Positions 6,206 to 61,540 of a stretch of 64,000 bases of DNA are shown piece by piece. The first letter of the stretch is position 1. Every line of letters begins with the position of its first letter. A model generated the notes under the pieces. That model had not been told where the DNA came from. It did no database searches and was given only the letters and a program-made list of their open reading frames with translations. Location: assembly GCA_964016885.1 (NCBI GenBank), contig CAXHJY010000542.1, positions 5,324 to 69,323 on the forward strand, written 5' to 3'. Both the position numbers and the translations under genes were made by a program. The DNA comes from Eledone cirrhosa (Eukaryota).

Positions 6206-6755
6206 ATGGTGGCTGCCAACTCGTTTTCGAGTACGGCCACTACTTTATATCCATGTAGGAGAACCCCTACTGATGCGCTGAACAAGTGCGACTTTTTAGT
6301 CCAGCCAGCGACTTGAAAACTCTGGTACAAACACTACACTTGTGACAATTATTGACACATAGTGCTGGGCCCATGGTACCATGTGATGACAAGTGCAGAG
6401 AGATCTCCAGATATAAAGCAATGCCTGTGCTGTCAAGCTTTTATAGTGAGCAAAGGCACTGCACAAAGCCAGTCCCACTCTCTTAACCAAGATGATATTT
6501 ACCAAAAAGAAGAACAAGTCAACATCATTGGATACCATCAGGGTTGCAGGTGTTATATCAGAGTTTTCCTTCTCCTAGAATTCTGCCTTGACAAAGGCTA
6601 AGGGGTCATCATCTCCCGGGTCGTTGGCGACTAAACTGGAAACCCCACCAAGGTTTCTTGGTGAGGAGGGTGACTTTGGACATCCTGCAGGACTAAAAAC
6701 AAAACCTGTCAAAGGGCAAAGGAGCCCTTAAGAGTCAATGGCCATCCAAAATCAC
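6206..6755 (-). mobile_element. Same family, with inverted 5' segment
   Basis: 6206-6617 is collinear with 32074-32484; 6618-6755 is the reverse complement of 32486-32623. Confidence 0.75.
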
Positions 6756-12544: not shown

Positions 12545-12797
12545 AAAGATCAAGGGAGCACCCACTCTCTGTTCTCCTGAGGAGAAGGGTTGCACACTTT
12601 TTTCGGGGACGTGTGCGACCCCCCAAGGCGCCTCCTCCCTATTGAGGATTTTGTTATAAAATTTATTTTGTTATGTTGTATTTTATTTTTACATCTTGTT
12701 ATTGCCTCCTCCTTATTGAGGACGCCTTTTTATGTAAACTCCCCCCATTGTACTTGTCCCACTTTTTGATACCCTGGTGGCAAATAAAAAGAAAATT
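12545..12797 (+). mobile_element. 3' UTR-only copy of the same Tx1/L1 LINE
   Basis: Near-identical to 13600-13855 (caagggagcaccc..ggagaagggttgcacacttttttcggg..ggcaaataaaa). Confidence 0.8.
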
Positions 12798-12849
12798 ATC
12801 TATTTGTTTGTCTAACTGTGTCTGGCTGTCTATCTATCTATTTTTTTTT

Positions 12850-13858
12850 CAAAGACCGAGAAAACTGGGCGCCTGGCACACTGAGTGTGCCCAGGCGCTC
12901 ACCGCCCTCTGGCAGGCGGATCCGGTTATCAGTGGAGACTCCACCGCAACATTCTATAGAGGGCTGGTACGCAGCAGGTGCGACGACGCCCTCGGAGAAG
13001 CCCTAGACATGGAGGAGGACGAACTGGCCAGCCTGTTCGGTAGGACATTCAGCCCGGGACCTATGGACAACTTCCAGAAGTCCCTGGCCTGGCAGTGCTA
13101 CCGAGGGGCTTTACCCGTTCGAGAAAGGCTCTACAGACACGGGCGCCCGGGTAGGGACCCCGCCAAAAAGATCTGTCCCAGATGCGTGTGCGACGAGGAA
13201 ACCGTTGCACACGCATTAGTACACTGCTCGGGCGTAGCCGATCTGTGGGGCTATGTCGAACAACTGCTGTCAAGGGTGGGACCGATCCGGTTGACCACCG
13301 AGTCTATTGTAATGATCAAGCCGCCTCCCCCCTTCAAAGATGAAGCAGAGGTGGTGTTTCTGTGCGTAATAGCCATGGCGAAAGAGGTTGTATGGTGGAC
13401 GCGTCTGAAAGGACTGAGGTCGGGCACCTTTCTCTCTGGCCAACAACTGGTCCGTTTCTTCCGATATCATTTTGGAAGAAGGATCAGGATGGAGAGAGAG
13501 GTGCTGCACCCCAGCCGTTTCTATGAAAGATGGGTGAAAGTGGCGAGATGGCCCGTGTGAATGGGCCTTCACTCTACATCAGACTATAGGTGAGGAAGAT
13601 GAAAGACCAAGGGAGCACCCCTTCTCTGTGCTCCTGAGGAGAAGGGTTGCACACTTTTTTCGGGGGTGTGTGCGACCACCCAAGGCGCCTCCTCTCTATT
13701 GAGGATTTTGTTAAAAATTTTATTTTTTGTTATATCTTATTTTATTTTTATATTTTGTTATTGCCTCCTCCTTATTGAGGACGCCTTTTTGTGTAAACTC
13801 CCCCCTTTGTACTTGTCCCACTTTTGATGCCCTAGTGGCAAATAAAAGAAATATATCT
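12850..13858 (+). mobile_element. 5'-truncated L1/Tx1-clade LINE (ORF2 C-terminal zinc knuckle and 3' UTR)
   Basis: Open frame to 13560 with SLAWQCYRGALPVRERL..CPRCVCDEETVAHALVHC (zf-RVT-like CCHC); 3' UTR ends AATAAAAGAAA followed by atatct. Confidence 0.85.
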
Positions 13859-17340: not shown

Positions 17341-18880
17341 AGACATATACATAGACATATACATACATAGACATATACATAGACATATATATACATAGAC
17401 ATATATATACATAGACATATATATACATAGACATATATACATAGACATAGACATATATATATATACATAGACATATATAGACATATATATACATAGACAT
17501 ATATATACATATACATATATACACATACATAGACATATACATACATACATAGACATATATATACATAGACATATATACATATACATAGACATATACATAC
17601 ATAGACATATATACATATACATAGACATATACATACATAGACATATATATACATAGACATATATATACATAGACATATACATACATAGACATATATATAC
17701 ATACATACATATATATACATATATACATATACATATATATACATAGACATATACATAGACATATACATACATAGACATATACATAGACATATATATACAT
17801 AGACATATATATACATAGACATATATATACATAGACATATATACATAGACATAGACATATATATACATAGACATATATACATATACATAGACATATATAT
17901 ACATAGACATATATACATATACATATACATATACATAGACATATATATACATAGACATATACATACATATACATACATAGACATATATATACATAGACAT
18001 ATATACACATACATAGACATATACATACATAGACATATATATACATAGACATATATACATATAAATAGACATATACATACATAGACATATATATACATAG
18101 ACATATACATACATAGACATATATATACATAGACATATAGACACATACATAGACATATATACATACATAGACATATATATACATATACATATATACATAG
18201 ACATATACATACATAGACATATATATATATAGACATATATATACATAGACATATCTATACATAGACATATATATATAGACATATATACATATACATAGAC
18301 ATACATAGACATATACATAGACATACATAGACATATATATACATACACACATATACATAGACATATATATACATAGACATATATATACATACATAGACAT
18401 ATATATACATACAGAGACATATATATACATAGACATATACATACATATACATAGACATACATAGACATATATATACATGGACATAGACATATACATATAC
18501 ATATATATACATACATAGACATATATACATATACATATATACATATACATATATACATATACATAGACATATACATACATAGACATATATACACATACAT
18601 AGACATATACATACATAAACATATATATACATACAGAGACATATATATATATACATAGACAGATAACCACATACGTAGACATATATATACATAGACATAT
18701 ATACACACATACATAGACAGATACGCACATAGACATATACACACATACATAGACATATATATACATAGACATATACATACAGAGACATACATATACATAC
18801 ATAGACATATATACACACATACATAGACATATATACACAAACATAGACACACAAACATAGATATACATACATAGACATAC
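17341..18880. repeat. (ATACATAGAC)-type compound microsatellite (continues at 15035-15960)
   Basis: Same motif class on both sides of the Penelope-like insertion. Confidence 0.93.
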
Positions 18881-19489
18881 ACTTACACAGTTATAGCCAT
18901 ACACATACACATAAACATAGATATGCATACACGCACACAAAAACAAACACACACACACACAAAATCGCAGACACACGCTCACATACACACACACATACAC
19001 ACACCGACACAGACTCACACACAAAAACAAACACACACACACACACACAATCACATACACACACACACACACAATCACAGACACACGCTCACATACACAC
19101 ACACATACACACACCGACACAGACACACACACAAAAACAAACAAACACAGACACACACACACAAAAACAAACACACACACACACACACAATCACAGACAC
19201 ACACACACACAATCACAGACATACGCTCACATACACACACACATACACACACCGACACAGACACACACACAAAAACAAACAAACACAGACACACACACAC
19301 AAAAACAAACACACACACACACACACAATCACAGACACACACTCACACACACAGACACACACACACACATACACACACAGACACACGCACAAAATCAGAC
19401 GTCCCCTCTCCCCCCCATTCTGTCATCCTGGCGTCTACAGAATTTGTTAATGTTTATAACATCAGTAACATCAAGGAAGCCTCATTTAT

Positions 19490-19582
<93 letters not shown>

Positions 19583-19737
19583 GGTTGCTTGTCTGTCTAG
19601 TAATCTACACTCACACATTCATATATATATATACATATATATATAAACATACTTTTAAACAAACAAGTTCATTGATCAAGTATATTCTACTAAAACCAAC
19701 CTTGGATTGACCAATAAGCAGCAGTAACTCGTTGTGA

Positions 19738-19808
<71 letters not shown>

Positions 19809-19936
19809 AAAGTTATATTTAAATTGTTGGGTTAACAACGAGTAAATATTTATAACTGATATAAAAGCACTCAACAAGTATTTGGAGTATATTTATGATA
19901 TTAAATAAATGGAAACTATATTTATAAAACCATATT

Positions 19937-20002
19937 TATTTCGTTATATATATTTCAGGGATATCATATTAACAATATGTTATGCCTTCTTCAGACAAAA
20001 TA
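19937..20002 (-). ncRNA. Type I hammerhead ribozyme, paralog of 38631-38696
   Basis: Minus strand reads tattttgt-CTGAAGA-agg..cct-GAAA-tatata-TA-acgaaata. Differences from the 38.6 kb copy include the free N7 position and a G-U to G-C change in stem I, both structure-preserving. Confidence 0.75.
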
Positions 20003-20120
20003 CAATATATTAATAGATTTGGCAAATCAACCTCCCAAATGCAAGGTGATTGAAAGGTATGTCGTATCTATTTATTTATTTATAAGACTGTTTATATTGT
20101 ATTTTGTCTGAAGAAGGCAT

Positions 20121-20158
<38 letters not shown>

Positions 20159-20252
20159 CATTTTGCCGTTCATCCTTACGGGGTCGATAAAATAAAGTAC
20201 CAGTAATGCACTGGGTAATTGCTGGCCTTGTGCCTAAAGTAGAAACAATTAT

Positions 20253-20302
<50 letters not shown>

Positions 20303-20433
20303 TGTAAAATAACGATTGCGGCGACAAGCGGTTTCGGTTTTTGTGATTTTACATATCTCTATACCCTCTCTGCATCTCCTCTTGTATTAAGTACTCCCAC
20401 AATTAGATGTCTCCTCGCTCTCAACCCCCACAG

Positions 20434-20489
<56 letters not shown>

Positions 20490-21685
20490 CCTAGGGCGGG
20501 TAAAATTCCCGAAATCCATGGACGAGTTCTCTCCAGCGATCTCTGTCCCTCATTATCGCTGCCATGTCCTGCGTCTCCCAGAGACCAGTGTCTGTACTTA
20601 GGGCATCAACATATGTCAATCACGGTCTCCCTCATCCACTGTGTCCGTGCAGGGGCTCCCACAGGAGCACTGAGTGCAGTGTCAACTCTGGATGTCGTTG
20701 AGCATGTCCAGCCAACCCCAGTCTCCTCTGTGTCACTTTTGAGCCGACCTTTGGGAGGCTCCCATACAGCTCTGAGTTTTTCATCCTCAGTGTATACTGA
20801 TTAATGTTCAGAGCCATCCTCAGCATTCTCGTGTAGCACCCATGCACCATCTGAGTGAGTTTCTTGGTCAGTGTCCAAGTCTCAGACCCGTACAGCAGCA
20901 CAGACTCCACTGCAGCAACGAAGAGACGGATCTTCAGGTCGTTACGAAGGTCCGACTTCCACACCAATCTCAAACTGTGGCTCAGGCTTTGCTGTTTCTC
21001 TCAATCACATCATCCTCTGTGTTTCCAATCTTTGCTCCCAGATACAGGAAGTCCTCAACCAATTCTACCGGCTTCCCGCCTACATTCATAATCTTCTCTG
21101 GCTTCTTGATATTCTGTACCAGATACTTCGTCTTAATCTCATTCATTCTCAGCCCCACACTCATCGACACAGTCTCCACCTCTTGCATCAACACCTGCGC
21201 CTCCTTCATTGTGTTTGTCACCAGAACTATGTCTTCAGCAAATTCAGCATCTCATCTTTTTCGCCTTAACTATCCTGCTCTGAGGCAGTGCTACAGTAAA
21301 GCCAGAGTCCTGGTGTTTCTCCAGCGCAAGGCGCATACACTAGTCCACTGCGATGATAAAAAAGTAGTGAGCCAATGTATCTCCCTGGAGCACTCCAGCC
21401 AATATCTCAAAGAACTCTGTCATCCCGTCAGGTGTAATGACTTGGGCTTTGGTGTTGATGTAGAGCAGTGATATCAGGTCCACTATCTTCTTGGGGATTC
21501 CATAAGCCTGTAAGATCTTCATCAGGCAGTGACGGTCCACAGAATCAAAGGCCTTCCTAAAGTCAATGAAAATCATGACAGCAGGAAGGCTCTATCTCCA
21601 TCTAATATCCCCCTCAGCATCTGGAATTGACTGGTGGTTGATCTTCCATCTCTGAAGCCGTTCTGGTTGTCCCTGAGCCTCTTCT
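20490..21685 (-). mobile_element. RTE-like LINE reverse transcriptase fragment, frameshifted
   Basis: IFIDFRKAFDSVDR..GVLQGDTLA (RT motifs), VGLRMNEIKTK..VEDFLYLGA, KIRLFVAAVESVLLYGSETWTLT..LAGHAQR, split over several frames. Confidence 0.88.
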
Positions 21686-22308
21686 TCCAGCAACTATGTT
21701 GAAAAATAAGCCTCATTTGGTCATTCCATAAGAGTATCATGGTCAGCCTATGAAGGAGTGATGCTAGAGCTGTGAAATTTTGCTTGTATTAATTTCAACT
21801 CTTCTTATTAATAACTGCATTGTTTCTTACCAGCGACTATGTTGAAATATGAACCTCATTTGGTCATTCCATCTTGGTCAGCCTATGAACTTTTCACTCT
21901 ATCATCTTTTCAACCGACCCTCGTTTATCAATTTATTTTTAACATTTTTTTTTTTTTTTACTGAAACAAAACATCAGTTTTATTTATTGGTCCAAGAGCA
22001 GATTTTTGTGTGTCTTCAGTAGAGTGAGTTAAATAGCCTCTAGGAGATATTGGTTATTTAATTAACCTTGGCGGTATACCAGCTTAGAAGAGAGCGCCAT
22101 GACATTAAATGTTATAAGGCGTAATGTCTGCTGTTCCAAACATTTATGTCATTCTGTTGACCTAGCCCGATCGAGATAAATGTTAAGAAAATTTTCCTCC
22201 TCCACATACAAACACGCACACACGCATGCAGAGGAACGCACACACACACACGCACAGTAACACACACACGCACAGGAACACATACACACACACACACACA
22301 TATATATA

Positions 22309-22406
22309 CAGGTAAAATTCCGTTATAACGAATACCCTTATAACGAATTTTTCGTTAAAAAGAATTTTTTATAGCCCCTGAATTTCGTTATAACGGAATG
22401 TCACTG
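22309..22406. mobile_element. Tc1/mariner-pogo-type MITE
   Basis: Imperfect TIRs CAGgtaaaattccgttataacgaa / ttcgttataacggaatgtcaCTG; TA on the left flank. Confidence 0.6.
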
Positions 22407-22408
22407 TG

Positions 22409-22439
<31 letters not shown>

Positions 22440-22495
22440 GCGTTCGAATCTAGTTGTCGAAACGGCCGGAGCTCAGCTGTCGGGGCCCTGACTCT

Positions 22496-22531
<36 letters not shown>

Positions 22532-22722
22532 TCTCTATTTCTCTCTTCCTCTATCTATCTATCTTTCTATCTATCTTTCTATCTATCTATCTGTTTGTCT
22601 GACTCTCCCCCTCTCTATTGCTCTGAGTGAACATACATATATAGATATATAGATATAGACACATACACAAGTATACAAATATAGATATATGCATACATAC
22701 TTATATACAACGTACATCCATG

Positions 22723-22818
<96 letters not shown>

Positions 22819-23299
22819 TTATACTCGGGGAGCGTCATATTGTTATAATATTGCCAGAAATAATAATAAAACACACTCACTGTTTGGTTTGGGTTGGTTT
22901 TCGCTTCTGTATCTTTTATATCTCCATAGTTAATTTAATTGGCAATCAATGTTTATCATAAATATAAATATAAATGTAAACATAAATAAATAAATATATA
23001 TATACACACAAGTACAATAACAACAAACACATATAAACAGACACTAGTGAACAAAAATAGAATACAAAAACAAAAACACATACACTGAAACGCAAACACA
23101 CACACACCAAACATTAAACACACACGCAAACGCATGCGCAGAGACAGAGGCAAGAATAAATGAATAAATAAATAAAATAAAAATGGCGTAGGCTTTAAAA
23201 TACAACGAGAGGAAACATAATAGTACCACTTATGATGTCGCAGATGTGTGAGGAAAGAACTTTGATAGACTATATATATATATATATATATATTTATAT

Positions 23300-23509
23300 C
23301 TGTATTTTTAACCGTTGGTCACTCAATGATAAACATTCATAGCCAAATAAATTAACTATGGAGATATAAAAGATACAGAAGCGAAAACCAACCAAACAGT
23401 GTGTGTGTTCTGTTATTATTTCTGGCAATATTATTATAACAATATGACCCTCCCCAAGTATAACAATATTTGTTTCGACACACGATTTCATATAAAAAAC
23501 CTTGCAAAC

Positions 23510-23512
<3 letters not shown>
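23300..23512 (-). mobile_element. (TA)n-embedded dispersed repeat family
   Basis: Motif ttggggagggtcatattgttataatattgccagaaataataac recurs at about 1862-2020, 22817-22935, 60692-60940 and 61220-61440, always next to (TA)n. Confidence 0.65.
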
Positions 23513-23559
<47 letters not shown>

Positions 23560-23578
23560 ATAAATATATATAAATATG

Positions 23579-23633
<55 letters not shown>

Positions 23634-23651
23634 ATAAATATATATAAATAT

Positions 23652-23721
<70 letters not shown>

Positions 23722-24255
23722 ATATATATATATATATATTTAATATATATATATATATTTAATATATATATATATATATTTAATATATATATATATATAT
23801 TTAATATATATATATATATATATATCTAATATATATCAATATATATAAATATATATTGATATATATATATAAATATATATTGATATATATATATAAATAT
23901 ATATTGATATATATATATAAATATATATTATTATATATATCAATATATATATTGATATATATATCAATATATATCAATATATATATATTGATATATATAT
24001 ATATATCAATATATATATTGATATATATATCAATATATATCAATATATATATATTGATATATATATATATATCAATATTTATATTGATATATATATATAT
24101 ATCAATATATATCAATATATATATATTGATATATATATATATATATATATATCAATATTTATATTGATATATATATATATATCAATATATATATATATTG
24201 ATATATATATATATATATAATCAATATATATATTTAATATATATAAATATATATA

Positions 24256-24325
<70 letters not shown>

Positions 24326-24534
24326 CAAATTAAAGTTTAAGCAAAGAATCGCTGCTTTCACCGTTAACGGGATCTTCTGAAACTAAAAAAATCAATCTGT
24401 GAACGCGGAATATCAGATATTGAGTTAGAAACTCAAAATAGTCTCTTACAATTAAATAGTTCGAAGAAAGAAGTTTTTCCGAGCCGTGTAATATAATTGA
24501 ATATAGAAGAAGACTGAATTGTCACACAATCTTT

Positions 24535-24609
24535 AACACCTACTGATGAGCAGAAAGTTGGTGATACCTTAATAATTTTGCGAACAGTTCATATAACTGT
24601 CTATGTGTT
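24535..24609 (+). ncRNA. Hammerhead ribozyme, one core A missing (probably inactive)
   Basis: aacaccta-CTGATGA-gcagaa..ttttgc-GA-Acagtt(catat)aactgT-C-tatgtgtt. All three stems present but GAA instead of GAAA. Confidence 0.65.
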
Positions 24610-24851
24610 TCAAGTAGTTGCCTAATATAGGTTTGTTCTTCTTTTTCTTGATTTATTACTTTAAATTAAGTCTGGCAAACCATATTGTTATAGTTAGTAT
24701 TTATTTCACCCTAGTGAACCTGGTCCTTTACAATTCGAACACATGTATATTTATATTTGTGTTTATCTCTCTTGTATATTCAATTATATATATACATAAA
24801 TGTAATAAATATATATATATATATATAAATATGTAATATATATATATATAT

Positions 24852-24970
24852 ATAGGAAAAGTAAGACCCCCGACAGCAGAGCTCAAGCTGTTTCGACGGC
24901 TATTTCTGGAGTCCAGAAATAGCCGTCGAAACGGCTTGAACTCTGCCGTCGGGGCCTTATTTTTTCCTAT
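24852..24970. repeat. Imperfect palindrome, same family as 51150-51283
   Basis: Centre tctgga-g-tccaga at 24911; the flank 24970-25042 is the reverse complement of about 51075-51150. Confidence 0.9.
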
Positions 24971-25044
24971 TTCCCACTCTACTACCCTAAGTATTGAGTA
25001 CTCTGGTGCGTTATGGTCCATCTGGTTCCTTACCACAATTCCTT

Positions 25045-25108
<64 letters not shown>

Positions 25109-25253
25109 AAAGTCTAAAGTCTGTCTTGAGCCAGAAGGCTCATTTGGCCAGTGCTTATCCCGGTTTCATAGCGTGAAGCGACTGAGAGTACAAGGCTCCC
25201 CCCCTGGACAGGATGCCAGTCCATCGCAGGGTTAAACCTCCAGCTATTGCTGG

Positions 25254-25290
<37 letters not shown>

Positions 25291-25742
25291 CACGCACACA
25301 CAAACAAATGTACGCATACAAACACACGTTCCTATCGTGTGAGTGTGTGTGTGTGTGTATGGAAGTGTATGTGTGTCAGTGTAAGTGTACACCCGTTCAT
25401 TATCTATAGGGCAGTATCGGTAGAGGGTCGGACGCCATGCTTTCCAGCATAGTTACGTCCCTTTACGATCTGAGTTCAAATCCCGCCCGCCGAGGTTGAC
25501 TTTGCCATACATCCTTACGGGGTCGATAAAATAAACTACCAGTAATGCACTGGGTATTTGCTGGCCTTGTGCCTAAAGTAGAAACAATTATCTATAGATA
25601 CTTCATAATTGGCAAACCAGCTCCGTATTTGTGCAACCACATGTATGTCTAGTCTCTAGCTAAATATAATCCGTATGTGTAAATATTGGATCGGCCAGAA
25701 CAATTGGCCAAATTATCCAAATCCTCAATATATAATCTATGT

Positions 25743-25838
25743 TGATCCTCTTAGCTGAAATTATAATGAGAAAGTTAAAACACACATCATACACTACTAC
25801 AACACACACACACAGAATTCTCTCCAGGTAATTACAAG

Positions 25839-25880
<42 letters not shown>

Positions 25881-25892
25881 CACGGGCGTGTG

Positions 25893-25947
<55 letters not shown>

Positions 25948-26239
25948 ATATGTATGTATATATATATGTATGTATATATATATGTATATATATATATATG
26001 TATATATATATGTATATATATATATGTATGTATATATATATGTATGTATATATGTATATATGTATGTATATATATATGTATGTATATATGTATGTATATG
26101 TATATGTATATATGTATGTATATATATATGTATACATACATACATATATACATATATACATACATATATACATATATACATACATATATACATATATATA
26201 TATTTATATATATATATATATATATATACATACACACGC

Positions 26240-26304
<65 letters not shown>

Positions 26305-26400
26305 CTTGTAATTACCTGGAGAGACTTCTGTGTGTGTGTGTTGTAGTAGTGTATGATGTGTGTTTTAACTTTCTCATTATAATTTCAGCTAAGAGGATCA
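25743..26400. repeat. Inverted repeat enclosing a microsatellite
   Basis: tgatcctcttagctgaaattataatgagaaag..caagcgcgcgcac at 25743-25890 is mirrored at 26230-26400, around (TA/TATG)n. Confidence 0.9.
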
Positions 26401-26811
26401 AGGGAGAGATGACCCCTTAGCCTTTGTCAAGGCAGAATTCTAGGAGAAGGAAAACTCTGATATAACACCTGCAACCCTGATGGTATCCAATGATGTTGAC
26501 TTGTTCTTCTTTTTGGTAAATATCATCTTGGTTAAGAGAGTGGGACTGGCTTTGTGCAGTGCCTTTGCTCACTATAAAAGCTTCACGGCACAGGCATTGC
26601 TTTATATCTGGAGATCTCTCTGCACTTGTCATCACATGGTACCATGGGCCCAGCACTATGTGTCAATAATTGTCACAAGTGTAGTGTTTGTACCAGAGTT
26701 TTCAAGTCGCTGGCTGGACTAAAAAGTCACACTCGTTCAGCGCATCAGTAGGGGTTCTCCTACATGGATATAAAGTAGTGGCCGTACTCGAAAACGAGTT
26801 GGCAGCCACCA
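26401..26811 (+). mobile_element. Same family, 5'-truncated copy
   Basis: Reverse complement of 32074-32484. Confidence 0.78.
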
Positions 26812-27710
26812 TACATGTATGTATATATATATGTATGTATATATGTATATATATATGTATGTATATATGTATGTATATATGTATGTATATATGTATGTAT
26901 ATATATATGTATGTATATAAATGAATATATATATATGTATGTATATAAATGAATATATATATATGTATGTATATATGTATGTATATAAATGAATATATAT
27001 ATATATGTATGTATATATATATGTATGTATATAAATGAATATATATATATATATGTATGTATATATATATGTATGTATGTATATAAATGAATATATATAT
27101 GTATGTATATAAATGAATATATATATATGTATATATATATGTATGTATATAAATGAATATATATATATGTATGTATATATATATGTATATATATATATAT
27201 ATATGTATATATATGTATATATATATGTATATATATATATATGTATGTATATATATATATGTATATATATATATATGGGGGCCTGATAGGATTTCCAGAT
27301 ATAAGGTATGACTCTCTTTATTATTATTATTTTTTATCTGAAATACTGATTGATCTTCCTTGTACCCCATGTCTGATTTAGCCTTAGACAATGTATATGG
27401 GTGATCCATACATGTATTTATTATGTTTTAATATCTCTATGTGTGCATTGGTTGTGTATACATATAGTTATTCTTTTAATATCCAATTGAGTTCTTATAC
27501 ACGTGGTTAATACCTAACAGGTTTAAATGACCAGCGTGTATATTGTTTTATTTTAAGATGACCTCCCTTTACCCTTTTGGGGACAGCGTGTATTTTATCT
27601 TTGAGAGGACTGCTGGATTTTCTAATCTACCAGTCTCTTCTTAGCGCTGAGGGAGACCATCACCATTCTATTAATGTCGATATAATTCTTATATCGATAT
27701 TATTTGGGCA

Positions 27711-27834
27711 TCCACTGATGAGTTTATAAGAGCCCGCTTGTGTATAAAACTATGGATTATATACAAGTTTCTACATAACCTGGAAATTATTTATCCAAAA
27801 TTGTAGAAATCTTATAACGAAACGGCCGTCTGGA
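27711..27834 (+). ncRNA. Type I hammerhead ribozyme with extended, branched stem II
   Basis: Stem I tcca/tgga; CTGATGA 27715-27721; stem II closed by gtttataaga/tcttataac; GAAA 27819-27822; palindromic stem III ACGGCCGT; GUC cleavage triplet ending 27830. Confidence 0.8.
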
Positions 27835-28015
27835 AGGAAAGAGATATTTATTTAATAATGTCTCATAAAATAATACAACCAGCTATCCACGAAATACTCA
27901 TTAGTTAGCACCCCAAACACTAAATTGGGATAATACTTAGGTATATCCTAATGTTTGTTGAGTGAGATGGAGTTGGTCGGAGTATCGCTTAAGGCTTTCT
28001 CTGTTTATGTATTGA

Positions 28016-28063
<48 letters not shown>

Positions 28064-28072
28064 TTGTATATA

Positions 28073-28173
<101 letters not shown>

Positions 28174-28258
28174 AGATAGAGGGAGAGAGAATAGAATGAA
28201 ACGAAATTTCATTTCTCACTCTTAGTACGGCACTTACTTAAATGTAAGTATGTATGAA

Positions 28259-28553
28259 TGTATACGTACATACATATATGTATACAGACGTACAGTAGTA
28301 TGTATATATATACATACATGCACACACATATATATATATGCACGTATCGGTTTACCGAACATTTATTATAATGCTCGGTTTGTTTGTTTGTAAACACTGT
28401 ACGGCGTAATTCGGGCTGTTTGTTTGTTTACAAACAAACAGACTGAGCATTATAATAAATGTTCGGTAAACCGATACGTGCATATATATATGTGTGCATG
28501 TATGTATATATATACATACTACTGTACGTCTGTATACATATATGTATGTACGT

Positions 28554-28560
<7 letters not shown>
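28259..28560. repeat. Inverted repeat with short spacer
   Basis: Arms about 28259-28396 and 28425-28560 (cacgtatcggtttaccgaacatttattataatgctc and its reverse complement). Confidence 0.9.
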
Positions 28561-28602
<42 letters not shown>

Positions 28603-29160
28603 CTGTATATATATATACAAACGCAAATATATGCTTTCATAAACATGTATATTTATGTATATGAATTATGTTTATATATACGTATGTGGAGGCATGTGGC
28701 CTAGTAGTAAGGGTGTTGGACTTACGAACATAATGTTGTGGGTTCTTGTACTCTCAGTCGCTTTACGCCATGAAACTGGGGTAAGCACCGGCCAAATGAG
28801 CCTTTTGGTTTAAGACAGGCTTTAGACTTATATATATGTATACATATAAAGATATATACATATAAATATATAACTTGCGCGGCAAAAATATTATTTTTCC
28901 TCCCCTGAGTCACATTATTCCGACTCTAGAGAGCCTTCATTTCATTTGTTTTGGTCTCATCTTTTCTAAAGCGACTAAAAAAACCACATCTTTACTACTG
29001 TTCAACGTTTCTCGGCTCAAAATTAATTACCTACTTAACTTTCACAGAATCAGTTCAAGGCCATGTCGAGTAATATAAACAACTGCAGAATTTTTTTGAA
29101 CGCTGCTCAAAAAAATTTATTTTAAAACAATGTTTACAGAATTAAGGAAGACACACACAC

Positions 29161-29409
<249 letters not shown>

Positions 29410-29760
29410 AATATAAATTACCGAGAATCGTATTTCGGCTTTGGAATTAGCGAAAAACAACTTCCGAGATGTGTGGCAAGCGCTCAATAATTCTGACGAA
29501 CCAGAGCTACAACATACGTTTAAGGCCAAACACACTGAGACGATGGTTAAACCGTCATCCGCACAACCATAGAAACGACCAAGTAATTCGGGTCAAACAA
29601 ATAAAAAAATATGTGATTGAAAAACTTTACCCGGACCCCTGGATGGTTGGTAAAATCCAGCATTTGGGTTTCTGCGACTCCTAAATCAAGTACTGTCCGC
29701 TTAGAGACAAATAATGTTAGGCTTCTGGTAAGATGATTGAACAAGGGAGTCACTTTCTCA

Positions 29761-31932: not shown

Positions 31933-32628
<696 letters not shown>

Positions 32629-34327: not shown

Positions 34328-35615
34328 TTCTTCTGGTTTTATAATTTCACAAACTTTTTCCAATAGAGAGAGAGAGAGAGTCAGTTTCTAACGTAGATAC
34401 ACGACTCTCTCATTGGAATTTACACATCAACTAGGTCGATATGTGTGTGGAGGTATGTATGTTATTGTATGTGTGGATGTGAATGTTTTGAGTTGTATGT
34501 GTGAATGTGCATATGCTTTGTATCTGTACAAGTGTATATGCAGTTATTAGATGCAGAACTTTTGGAATGTTTTACATATTTTTTACTGTTCCATTAATGG
34601 ATTGTACTTGTAATTTCCTAACTAGTTGTGTTCTTTCTGTTTCTGTGAAGCTCAGCTTCTCAAGATTTGTGTTTAGGCAGTTACTAACATATCCCAGTGC
34701 CCCAATAATCACAGGCATAAATCTGAAGGAATAGTCAGGGTGGAGTATCTGCAGATTTCTCATTAGTTCTGCATAGATATTTTCCTTTTCGCTAATCTTT
34801 GATATCATATTGGCATCTGCTGGGCAGCTAACTTCCACTACTGTGCATGCCTTCTTTTCCCTGTCCCATATCATTATATCAGGTCTGTTATGCCTGCATT
34901 TTATTGGTGATTTTACTGGAACATTCAATCAGTATTTCATAATATGTATATGTATGTCTTCCATATTTCTGTAGCTTTTAATGTGTTTATTATCGGGGCT
35001 ATTTTTTCTACGGATTGCATTGTACAGTGTTTTGGCCACTACATTATGCCTCATAGGTAGATAGTACCACGATGACATCTTTGGGCAGCTACTTATGACA
35101 TGGGGGACATCTTCGATGTTAATTCTGCAGAGTTTGCACTTGTTGTTACATCTAGGTGTTTTGCCTGCATCCTCTTTTGTGAATCAGGTATTTTGTGTTG
35201 ATTTCCTATTCTTGGATTGCAAAAGCATATCCTTCAAAGTGAGAGCCAATCTAGCTGTTGTTGGTCCAAGATAGACTACTTTCTTTATCTATATTACTCT
35301 CACTCTGGAGCTTCTTGGCAACATATCCATGCTTGATTTTTTGCTGATAAGCATGCAGTTTTTCATACATGGATTCACTGCGGTATTGCTGGGCAACAAC
35401 TACCCAGGGTGTAAGTTTTTTATTATCATGCAGGGGATATCTTTCAAGGAGTTCCTTCCCAACTCTCATGATCTTATCTGTCTCATGCAGACAGACTTGC
35501 TTGATAGATGGGGGCCCCTATGCTTGGAGGTTATGTGAATGTTGTCGGAGGGATATGATATGACACTCAAATTCTGTCTAGCCTGATGTTAGGCCTCTGC
35601 CTCCCTGCTTACGTT
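34328..35615 (-). mobile_element. R4/Dong-like RLE non-LTR retrotransposon, 5'-truncated and degenerate
   Basis: CKLC..EDVPHVISSC..MRHNVV zinc knuckle near 35040-35145, then HNRPDIMIWDREKKACTVVEVSCP..EKENIY..PVIIGALG (PD-(D/E)xK restriction-like endonuclease). Both ends abut (ATGT)n. Confidence 0.85.
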
Positions 35616-37486: not shown

Positions 37487-37559
37487 TTTCATTCTGATGA
37501 GCGATTTCAGACGTCTCTGTTGAGCTCGTCTGTCTTCGTGAAACCTTTGGTAAATGGAA
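37487..37559 (+). ncRNA. Type I hammerhead ribozyme
   Basis: Stem I tttcatt/aatggaa; CTGATGA 37494-37500; stem II gcga..cagacg/cgtctg..tcgt; GAAA 37540-37543; stem III ACC-ttt-GGT; GUA triplet ending 37552. Confidence 0.78.
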
Positions 37560-38630: not shown

Positions 38631-38696
38631 TATTTCATTATATATATTTCAGGGATATCATATTAAAAATATGGTATGCCTTCATCAGACAAAATA
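38631..38696 (-). ncRNA. Type I hammerhead ribozyme (left arm of palindrome)
   Basis: Minus strand reads tattttgt-CTGATGA-agg..catatt/aatatg..cct-GAAA-tatata-TA-atgaaata; 8-bp stem I with two G-U pairs. Confidence 0.75.
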
Positions 38697-38832
38697 CAAT
38701 ATAAACAGTCTTATAAATAGATAGATTTGACATACCTTACAACTTCAACTTCCATTTAAAAAGTTGATTTTAAATGGAAGTTGAAGTTGTAAGGTATGTC
38801 AAATCTATCTATTTATAAGACTGTTTATATTG

Positions 38833-60697: not shown

Positions 60698-60936
60698 ATG
60701 GTTTGGGAGGGTCATGTTGCCAATAAGAAACACACGCACCAGTTGCTTTCACTCCAATTTATTATATATTAAATTTATAAATTTAAGAATTTAGAAATTT
60801 CCGGTTGGTTGGTTGGTTCCATAACCGGACGGTTGTTCATTTATTGTCAAAGTTCTTTCGTCACACATTCTGTGACCTCTTCAGTGACTGGGGATTCTTT
60901 TCTTTGTTTTTGTGCCTCTCCTTTGGTCTGTCGAAA

Positions 60937-61220
<284 letters not shown>

Positions 61221-61540
61221 TGTTATACTTGGGGAGGGTCATATTTGTGTAATAATATTCCCAGAATTAATAACAGAACACACTCACTGTTTGGTTGGTT
61301 TTCGCTTCTGTGTTTTTTATATCGGTTAATTTAATTTATTCGGGCCTCAATGTTACCATTGACCAACAGATACAATTTAGACACAAACACATATATATAG
61401 TCTATCAAAGTTCTTTCGTTGCACATCTGCAACATCGTCAGTGGTGCTATTATGTTTCCTCCCGTTGCATTGTATGCCTACGCCATCTTTATTTAGTCTG
61501 TTTATTTATTTATTTATATATATATATCTCTAACTTACAG

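Follow-up and report, generated by a model that had tools for sequence, protein, structure and literature searches.

The plus-strand motif at 27711-27834 of the 64,000-nucleotide stretch of DNA analysed here (the window) raises the question of whether a hammerhead whose core is split by 97 nt belongs to a genuine family of catalytic RNAs and, if so, what so large a stem II might contribute. To address it we combined motif and covariance-model searches, RNA folding and a comparison with related sequences in public sequencing runs.

Type I hammerhead motif and its 97-nt stem II

The elements named in the original prediction, namely the core, the GUC site, the spacing of about 97 nt and the palindromic stem III, are all present at their predicted positions, and the motif is organized as follows:

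27711-27714, + strand: 5' strand of stem I, TCCA, pairing with TGGA at 27831-27834
27715-27721, + strand: catalytic core CUGAUGA (CTGATGA in DNA), from motif search and consensus alignment
27722-27818, + strand: stem II domain of 97 nt, a predicted three-way junction, closed by G10.1-C11.1 (G27722-C27818)
27819-27830, + strand: GAAA core (27819-27822), palindromic stem/loop III ACGGCCGU (27822-27829) and GUC triplet ending in C27830
27831-27834, + strand: 3' strand of stem I, TGGA

The core is intact, and its combination of CUGANGA, GAAA and NUH with three stems, open at a stem I of 4 bp, is that of a type I hammerhead. The 8-nt stem III palindrome ACGGCCGT occupies 27822-27829, and the predicted cut lies 3' of C27830. 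In ensemble folding the pair probability of stem I is 0-0.5, and a C27709-G27836 pair may lengthen this stem beyond an A.A mismatch. As a chance control, 150 block-shuffled copies of the window were searched with a relaxed palindromic-hammerhead descriptor; they gave a single match in total, and 0/150 yielded one equal to the site at 27711-27834. In the real window the descriptor requiring a palindromic stem III matched this site only. The intact core and stems, the alignment to the RF00163 consensus outside the insert and the chance control together uphold the identification as a type I hammerhead.

Detection by covariance models and published descriptors

At gathering level, Rfam gave no match in the window, and an E-value scan of 21 kb had no hammerhead among the 150 of 264 matches listed. 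On the isolated 743-nt repeat unit that carries the ribozyme (see below), the best match was RF00163 (Hammerhead_1), with 19.5 bits and an E-value of 0.08, against a cut-off of 34. The motif resembles this canonical type I model in its core, the GU...AC base of stem II, the ACG-nn-CGUC segment of stem III and stem I, whereas 93 nt are found where the model has 10, and it is because of this insert that the score stays under the gathering cut-off. The published min-HHR descriptor allows a helix II of 3-7 bp with a loop of 3-10 nt, and hence a stem II of at most about 24 nt, which the arm exceeds. The expectation that standard covariance models would miss the motif was thus borne out. Given both the limit of about 24 nt in published searches and the Rfam miss, counts of animal retrozymes in invertebrates may be too low. 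In the open-access literature searched, no naturally occurring hammerhead was described as having a branched stem II; closed supplements may contain such families.

Predicted structure of the branched arm

The predicted components of the stem II domain, and a nearby segment that might interact with it, are:

27706-27709, + strand: GGGC directly 5' of stem I, a hypothetical partner of the GCCC linker
27724-27731, + strand: 5' arm of the closing helix, pairing with 27810-27817
27732-27735, + strand: unpaired junction linker GCCC, complementary to GGGC at 27706-27709
27737-27767, + strand: hairpin A, 27737-27747 with 27757-27767, 11 bp including one G.U, with a 9-nt loop
27769-27808, + strand: hairpin B, with a 7-bp base (27769-27775 with 27802-27808), an internal loop and a distal helix of 3-4 bp
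27810-27817, + strand: 3' arm of the closing helix, from folding

The 97-nt domain has a predicted folding energy of -24.7 kcal/mol, compared with a mean of -11.1 for its shuffled versions (z -5.0), and 0/2000 shuffles were equally stable. Such stability is consistent with the originally proposed three-way junction, in which a closing helix would bear two hairpins. Pair probabilities in hairpins A and B are about 0.97-1.0 at most positions in every context tried, and the distal helix of hairpin B is formed by TGGA/TCCA (27781-27784 with 27794-27797). The closing helix reaches only 0.5-0.9, depending on context. Circular folding of the unit leaves the helix probabilities unchanged.

The arm had also been described as an accessory domain. 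That it is a predicted three-way junction shared across the family (see below) stands, but it is not uniquely structured: the rest of the unit folds equally, as seen in the segment 27277-27710 upstream of the ribozyme, which on its own has a z of -5.9. The stem II domain therefore need not be a special accessory module, and is one arm of an RNA predicted to fold globally.

The repeat unit and its genomic setting

The original prediction did not include the setting of the motif, a retrozyme-like unit of roughly 750 nt with the following layout:

26810-27276, no strand: (TA)/(TATG) microsatellite tract, left flank
27277-28019, + strand: copy of almost the full unit (743 of about 751 nt), non-coding and strongly folding, with microsatellite borders
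27835-28019, + strand: 3' domain, the commonest part of the family, with a depth peak of 236,678 at 27930-27954 in sequencing run X1
28020-28142, no strand: (TA)n microsatellite tract, right flank

The GC content of the unit is 33.8%, below the 45% used as an upper bound for retrozymes, and the RNA is predicted to be strongly self-paired, with a whole-unit z of -7.8 on the plus strand versus -3.0 on the minus strand. The longest reading frame wholly inside the unit has 55 aa, and Pfam gave 0 matches in 7 short frames. Blastn and nhmmer found no second copy in the 64-kb window, in which the unit is thus solo. No ORF of a Penelope-like element (PLE) was recognised in the window, and an ORF with RT and GIY-YIG, as an autonomous PLE would have, was not found beside the unit.

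For comparative data we used four of nine listed runs (X1, X5, X6 and X7), from three studies with three organism labels, of which 1067 contigs of X1, 2181 reads of X7, 8 contigs of X5 and 5 contigs of X6 aligned to the stretch. In two X1 contigs, position 28010 is connected to 27294 and to 27285, respectively, through 33 and 25 letters resembling the two ends of the window copy itself. These joints give units of 750 and 751 nt, relative to which the window copy is about 8 nt short. The kind of library is unrecorded for X1; its size suggests genomic DNA, so the end-to-start joints probably represent tandem DNA copies, an arrangement documented by two low-depth contigs of this run only, with no piece covering two ribozymes. 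The sequence 27277-28019 is likely to be a monomer of a non-LTR retrozyme, circularly permuted relative to the predicted cleavage site.

The same features could be read differently, with the 750-nt sequence as the long pseudo-LTR (pLTR) of an autonomous PLE, the joints as local duplications and the arm as pLTR sequence. Consistent with this, the end-to-start joint occurs in only two contigs, and the short stem I is flanked by U-rich and A-rich sequence, which is also found in PLE hammerheads. The depth, moreover, climbs towards the 3' end, a profile shared with 5'-truncated PLE copies, and (TA)n lies on both sides of the unit (PMC8557442). Set beside the negative search for an adjoining RT and GIY-YIG ORF, we consider this reading improbable, and retain that of a retrozyme monomer.

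The window belongs to an animal genome dense in microsatellites and LINE fragments, with repeats that seem octopus-like. A LINE fragment with a zf-RVT domain (Pfam PF13966) lies at 12646-13558 (+), and two further fragments are found at 20632-21788 (-), which we take to be an RTE-like RT, and at 34572-35517 (-), presumably from a restriction-like endonuclease-type element. An inverted dispersed repeat (26402-26950 and 31936-32484, 95% alike over 549 nt, with a third copy near 6298-6599) brackets the region, and a long fold-back inverted repeat at about 28240-28560, to the right of the element, is unrelated to it.

Distribution and sequence variation of the family

Depth in X1, which is not copy number, is 1,631 at the 5' end of the unit, rises to the above peak at 27930-27954 and is 22,003 at the 3' end; loose ends indicate that the 3' peak is owed partly to diverged subfamilies. 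Over five bins spanning 27705-27829 it stays at 17,800-29,600 and does not dip across the stem II arm. No joint or indel removing the arm occurs among the joints listed and the 12 of 19 indels listed; one X1 contig over 27720-27856 carries 9 gap letters, the position of which is unlisted. A contig of X5 (organism B) with 5 substitutions and 1 gap letter covers 27644-27837 and so includes the entire ribozyme; a contig of X6 (organism C) covers 27754-27968 with 2 substitutions. From the even depth, the lack of a listed arm-skipping joint and the X5 and X6 contigs it follows that the long stem II domain is a trait of a high-copy family and not a private insertion.

The 3' domain is common to diverged subfamilies, whose loose ends fall at 27851-27865, one of them with a different palindromic loop III. 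Read ends of X7 at 27488, 27788, 27799 and 27926 were considered as marks of cleavage and rejected, as they lie on AATT sites and represent RAD restriction cuts. The variants A27785C (14% in X1) and A27800C (1.8%) destroy AATT, which inflates their X7 frequencies, and the X1 values were used for this reason.

Five of the 40 substitutions listed out of 148 fall within the ribozyme. Two of these, G27825A and C27826T, have the same X1 depth (4270.8/17,861.4, about 24%, in 14 contigs each) and are found in 90/210 and 90/209 X7 reads, respectively. Together they turn the loop GGCC into GATC and keep the 8-nt palindrome. A diverged relative may carry a third palindromic version of the loop, AATT, to judge from one loose end in X6. 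In metazoan type I motifs two ribozymes are described as pairing through a palindromic stem III (PMC4209133), and the palindrome-keeping double change supports cleavage as a dimer here as well, the compensatory pattern speaking for the dimer pairing suggested earlier. As free cofolding of two copies gave no clean active dimer fold, the energy of the isolated palindrome as a self-duplex, -14.1 kcal/mol, was used instead.

The remaining three variants are inside the 97-nt domain, all distally in hairpin B, with two in loops and A27797C as the third. That 0/3 fall within the three main helices is a weak signal, with a chance of about 0.09. A27797C accounts for 99.8% of X1 depth, is near-fixed in all four runs and leaves the distal helix without its outer pair, so that T27781-A27797 is a near-private allele of the window copy, lost in nearly all relatives. 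Among the same 40 of 148 substitutions listed, no covariation was seen in the internal hairpins and no variant in the core. Across the unit as a whole, predicted pairs show no depletion of the listed variants (19/38 positions paired versus a background of 55.7%, p 0.29): 10 break a pair, 8 keep one, 2 are compensatory and 20 are unpaired.

This lack of depletion would be expected if the arm were a neutral fold-back insertion, caught once in a founder copy and amplified along with it, in a ribozyme that tolerates it or is inactive. AT-rich inverted repeats are indeed common in the window, the minus strand of the 97-nt domain folds too, and there exists the diverged relative with a different palindromic loop, whose stem II lies outside the data seen. 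However, the domain folds better on the plus strand (z -5.8) than on the minus strand (-3.3), several fold-back events would have been required to create three separate helices, and the compensation in the palindrome together with the lack of a listed core variant argues for a live ribozyme during amplification. We regard a neutral origin as very unlikely; were the arm neutral, the element would be an unusual yet ordinary retrozyme.

Possible functions of the branched arm

The explanation that we favour, with moderate confidence, is a hammerhead with a predicted three-way stem II of 97 nt within a repeat of high copy number that measures about 750 nt, lacks coding capacity and is likely a non-LTR retrozyme, that is, a protein-less derivative of a PLE. 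By analogy with known elements, tandem units would be transcribed as multimeric RNA, in which hairpins A and B would form first and bring together the closing helix and G10.1-C11.1. Two hammerheads would then pair via the 8-nt palindrome to give a stable helix III, and each would cut after C27830; the monomer set free, about 751 nt long, would then become circular. An RT/endonuclease of Penelope-like type, acting in trans, may nick (TA)n DNA and use the RNA as template from a start in the 3' domain, which would generate 5'-shortened and near unit-length copies such as 27277-28019. In this scheme the branched arm most likely acts as a scaffold for folding and so presents the closing helix, and the 3' domain at 27835-28019 is by analogy the likely region where reverse transcription starts.

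That the arm itself might be recognised by the reverse transcriptase, as had been suggested, or be where that enzyme starts is disfavoured. A precedent for protein binding near a ribozyme is the hammerhead of the Anolis PLE PAc, which needs the protein of the element to cleave; in that element (PMC11167929) the RT starts 111-118 nt into the ORF and the cut is at 26 nt, which puts the start 85-92 nt downstream of the cut and outside stem II. By analogy stem II is unlikely to be the RT start, though protein binding could still take place there. The most abundant segment of the family, with the X1 depth peak, also lies 3' of the ribozyme, and the window copy ends about 190 nt past the predicted cut. 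Of all the readings discussed, we give this one the least credence.

A regulatory or tertiary role would be somewhat less remote, if still unlikely. In the predicted structures the GCCC linker could pair with the GGGC that adjoins stem I. This might give a pseudoknot, taking the place of the usual contact between loop 1 and loop 2, or a competing hairpin in which CUGAUGA would be trapped, so that monomers and circles would stay uncut. The pairing would comprise four G-C pairs in an element of 34% GC, and its probability of 0.29-0.57 rivals that of the closing helix in the same comparison (0.51-0.62). In the predicted ensemble the GGGC/GCCC hairpin thus competes with the closing helix. In the predicted fold GGG is unpaired about 6 bp from the core, the position of the canonical type I loop 1, and a pseudoknot between stems I and II is present in about 40% of natural hammerheads (PMC3088659). 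Neither 4-mer has a variant among the 40 of 148 substitutions listed. On the other hand, the complementarity was noticed post hoc and has no compensatory change among the variants listed; the linker is about 10 bp from the core versus 4-6 bp on stem I, which may strain a pseudoknot, and pseudoknot scoring is outside the scope of ViennaRNA. We accordingly offer only tentatively the broader proposal of a hammerhead class with a three-way stem II, featuring a GCCC-GGGC tertiary contact or on/off switch and standing for animal retrozymes overlooked by models and descriptors.

With the scaffold as the preferred role, a high-copy family that keeps a 97-nt stem II junction offers a way to test how additional structure benefits a mobile catalytic RNA, the candidate gains being a scaffold, a tertiary contact, a switch or a protein site.

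Other hammerhead-like motifs

In other hammerhead-like motifs of the window the stem II domain measures 13-39 nt, which suggests that enlarged arms recur in this genome and that 97 nt is an extreme. One family, at 38688 (-), 38841 (+), 38348 (-), 19994 (-) and 20108 (+), has an 8-bp stem I and a stem II of 31-32 nt. Its pairs 38688/38841 and 19994/20108 are inverted (head-to-head), as PLE ends often are, and the former flanks a long near-perfect hairpin at about 38708-38820. A type I hammerhead-like motif at 37494-37556 (+) has a 7-bp stem I and a two-tier stem II of 39 nt; a partial copy of its 3' flank about 365 nt upstream suggests a partial tandem. PLE-type motifs with a stem II of about 13-32 nt occur at 61441 (-), 60884 (-), 24543 (+) and 31150 (-). 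A predicted small GTPase gene contains the first two in one of its introns, and both end in a similar C-rich motif that precedes (AT)n; Rfam reported no hammerhead at 60700-61500.

A pattern scan of prokaryote genomes gave 0 matches. Two pattern scans of viral contigs gave 0 and 2 matches, and both of the latter are devoid of stem I as well as of a closing stem II and were judged to be due to chance. The same judgement was made for 119 loci in metagenome contigs, of which 9 have a stem I of at least 3 bp and 1 also a stem II of at least 4 bp, none being unit-like by blastn.

Relationship to known systems

Published non-LTR retrozymes are non-coding units of low GC content that carry a type I hammerhead and occur in tandem (Cervera & de la Pena 2020, PMC7229834); they measure 51-972 bp, are frequently found as solo monomers and have a relationship to, or origin from, PLE pLTRs (Li, Clavereau & Pollet 2026, 10.64898/2026.07.22.740005); of the predicted retrozyme dimers in the latter study, 1/9 cleaved in vitro. 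Measured against these accounts, the unit described here resembles the metazoan elements in its type I hammerhead, short palindromic helix III and non-coding, low-GC, self-paired sequence, as well as in its solo monomer and its length of 750-751 nt, which falls within their range; the end-to-start joints of two contigs would also fit their head-to-tail order. It differs in having a 97-nt branched stem II where those described have a 4-bp hairpin, and it is about twice as long as the retrozymes of 170-400 nt in the 2020 paper. The canonical contact between loop 1 and loop 2 is also absent.

The min-HHRs of PLEs (Cervera & de la Pena 2014, PMC4209133) share with this motif a short helix I with U-rich and A-rich flanks, G10.1-C11.1, a palindromic 15.2-16.2/loop 3, a longer-than-usual helix II and an occurrence mostly as single dispersed copies. 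In contrast to them, there is no extra nucleotide between 9 and 10.1 here, G27722 following directly after A9, and the longest stem II among their 56 aligned motifs is about 23 nt by our reading of Fig. S3, versus 97 nt in this case. The helix II of 3-7 bp with a loop of 3-10 nt is not matched, nor is there an adjoining ORF. Being without an ORF, the unit is not an autonomous PLE, and it lacks two min-HHR features.

A further point of reference is provided by the discontinuous hammerheads of mammalian Clec2 genes, in which the insertion lies in stem I. Their description (PMC6765202) reports, as here, a hammerhead interrupted by a large insertion, in that case one that is still active; the Clec2 insertion amounts to several hundred nt in an mRNA 3' UTR, whereas the present one is a compact predicted junction in a mobile repeat.
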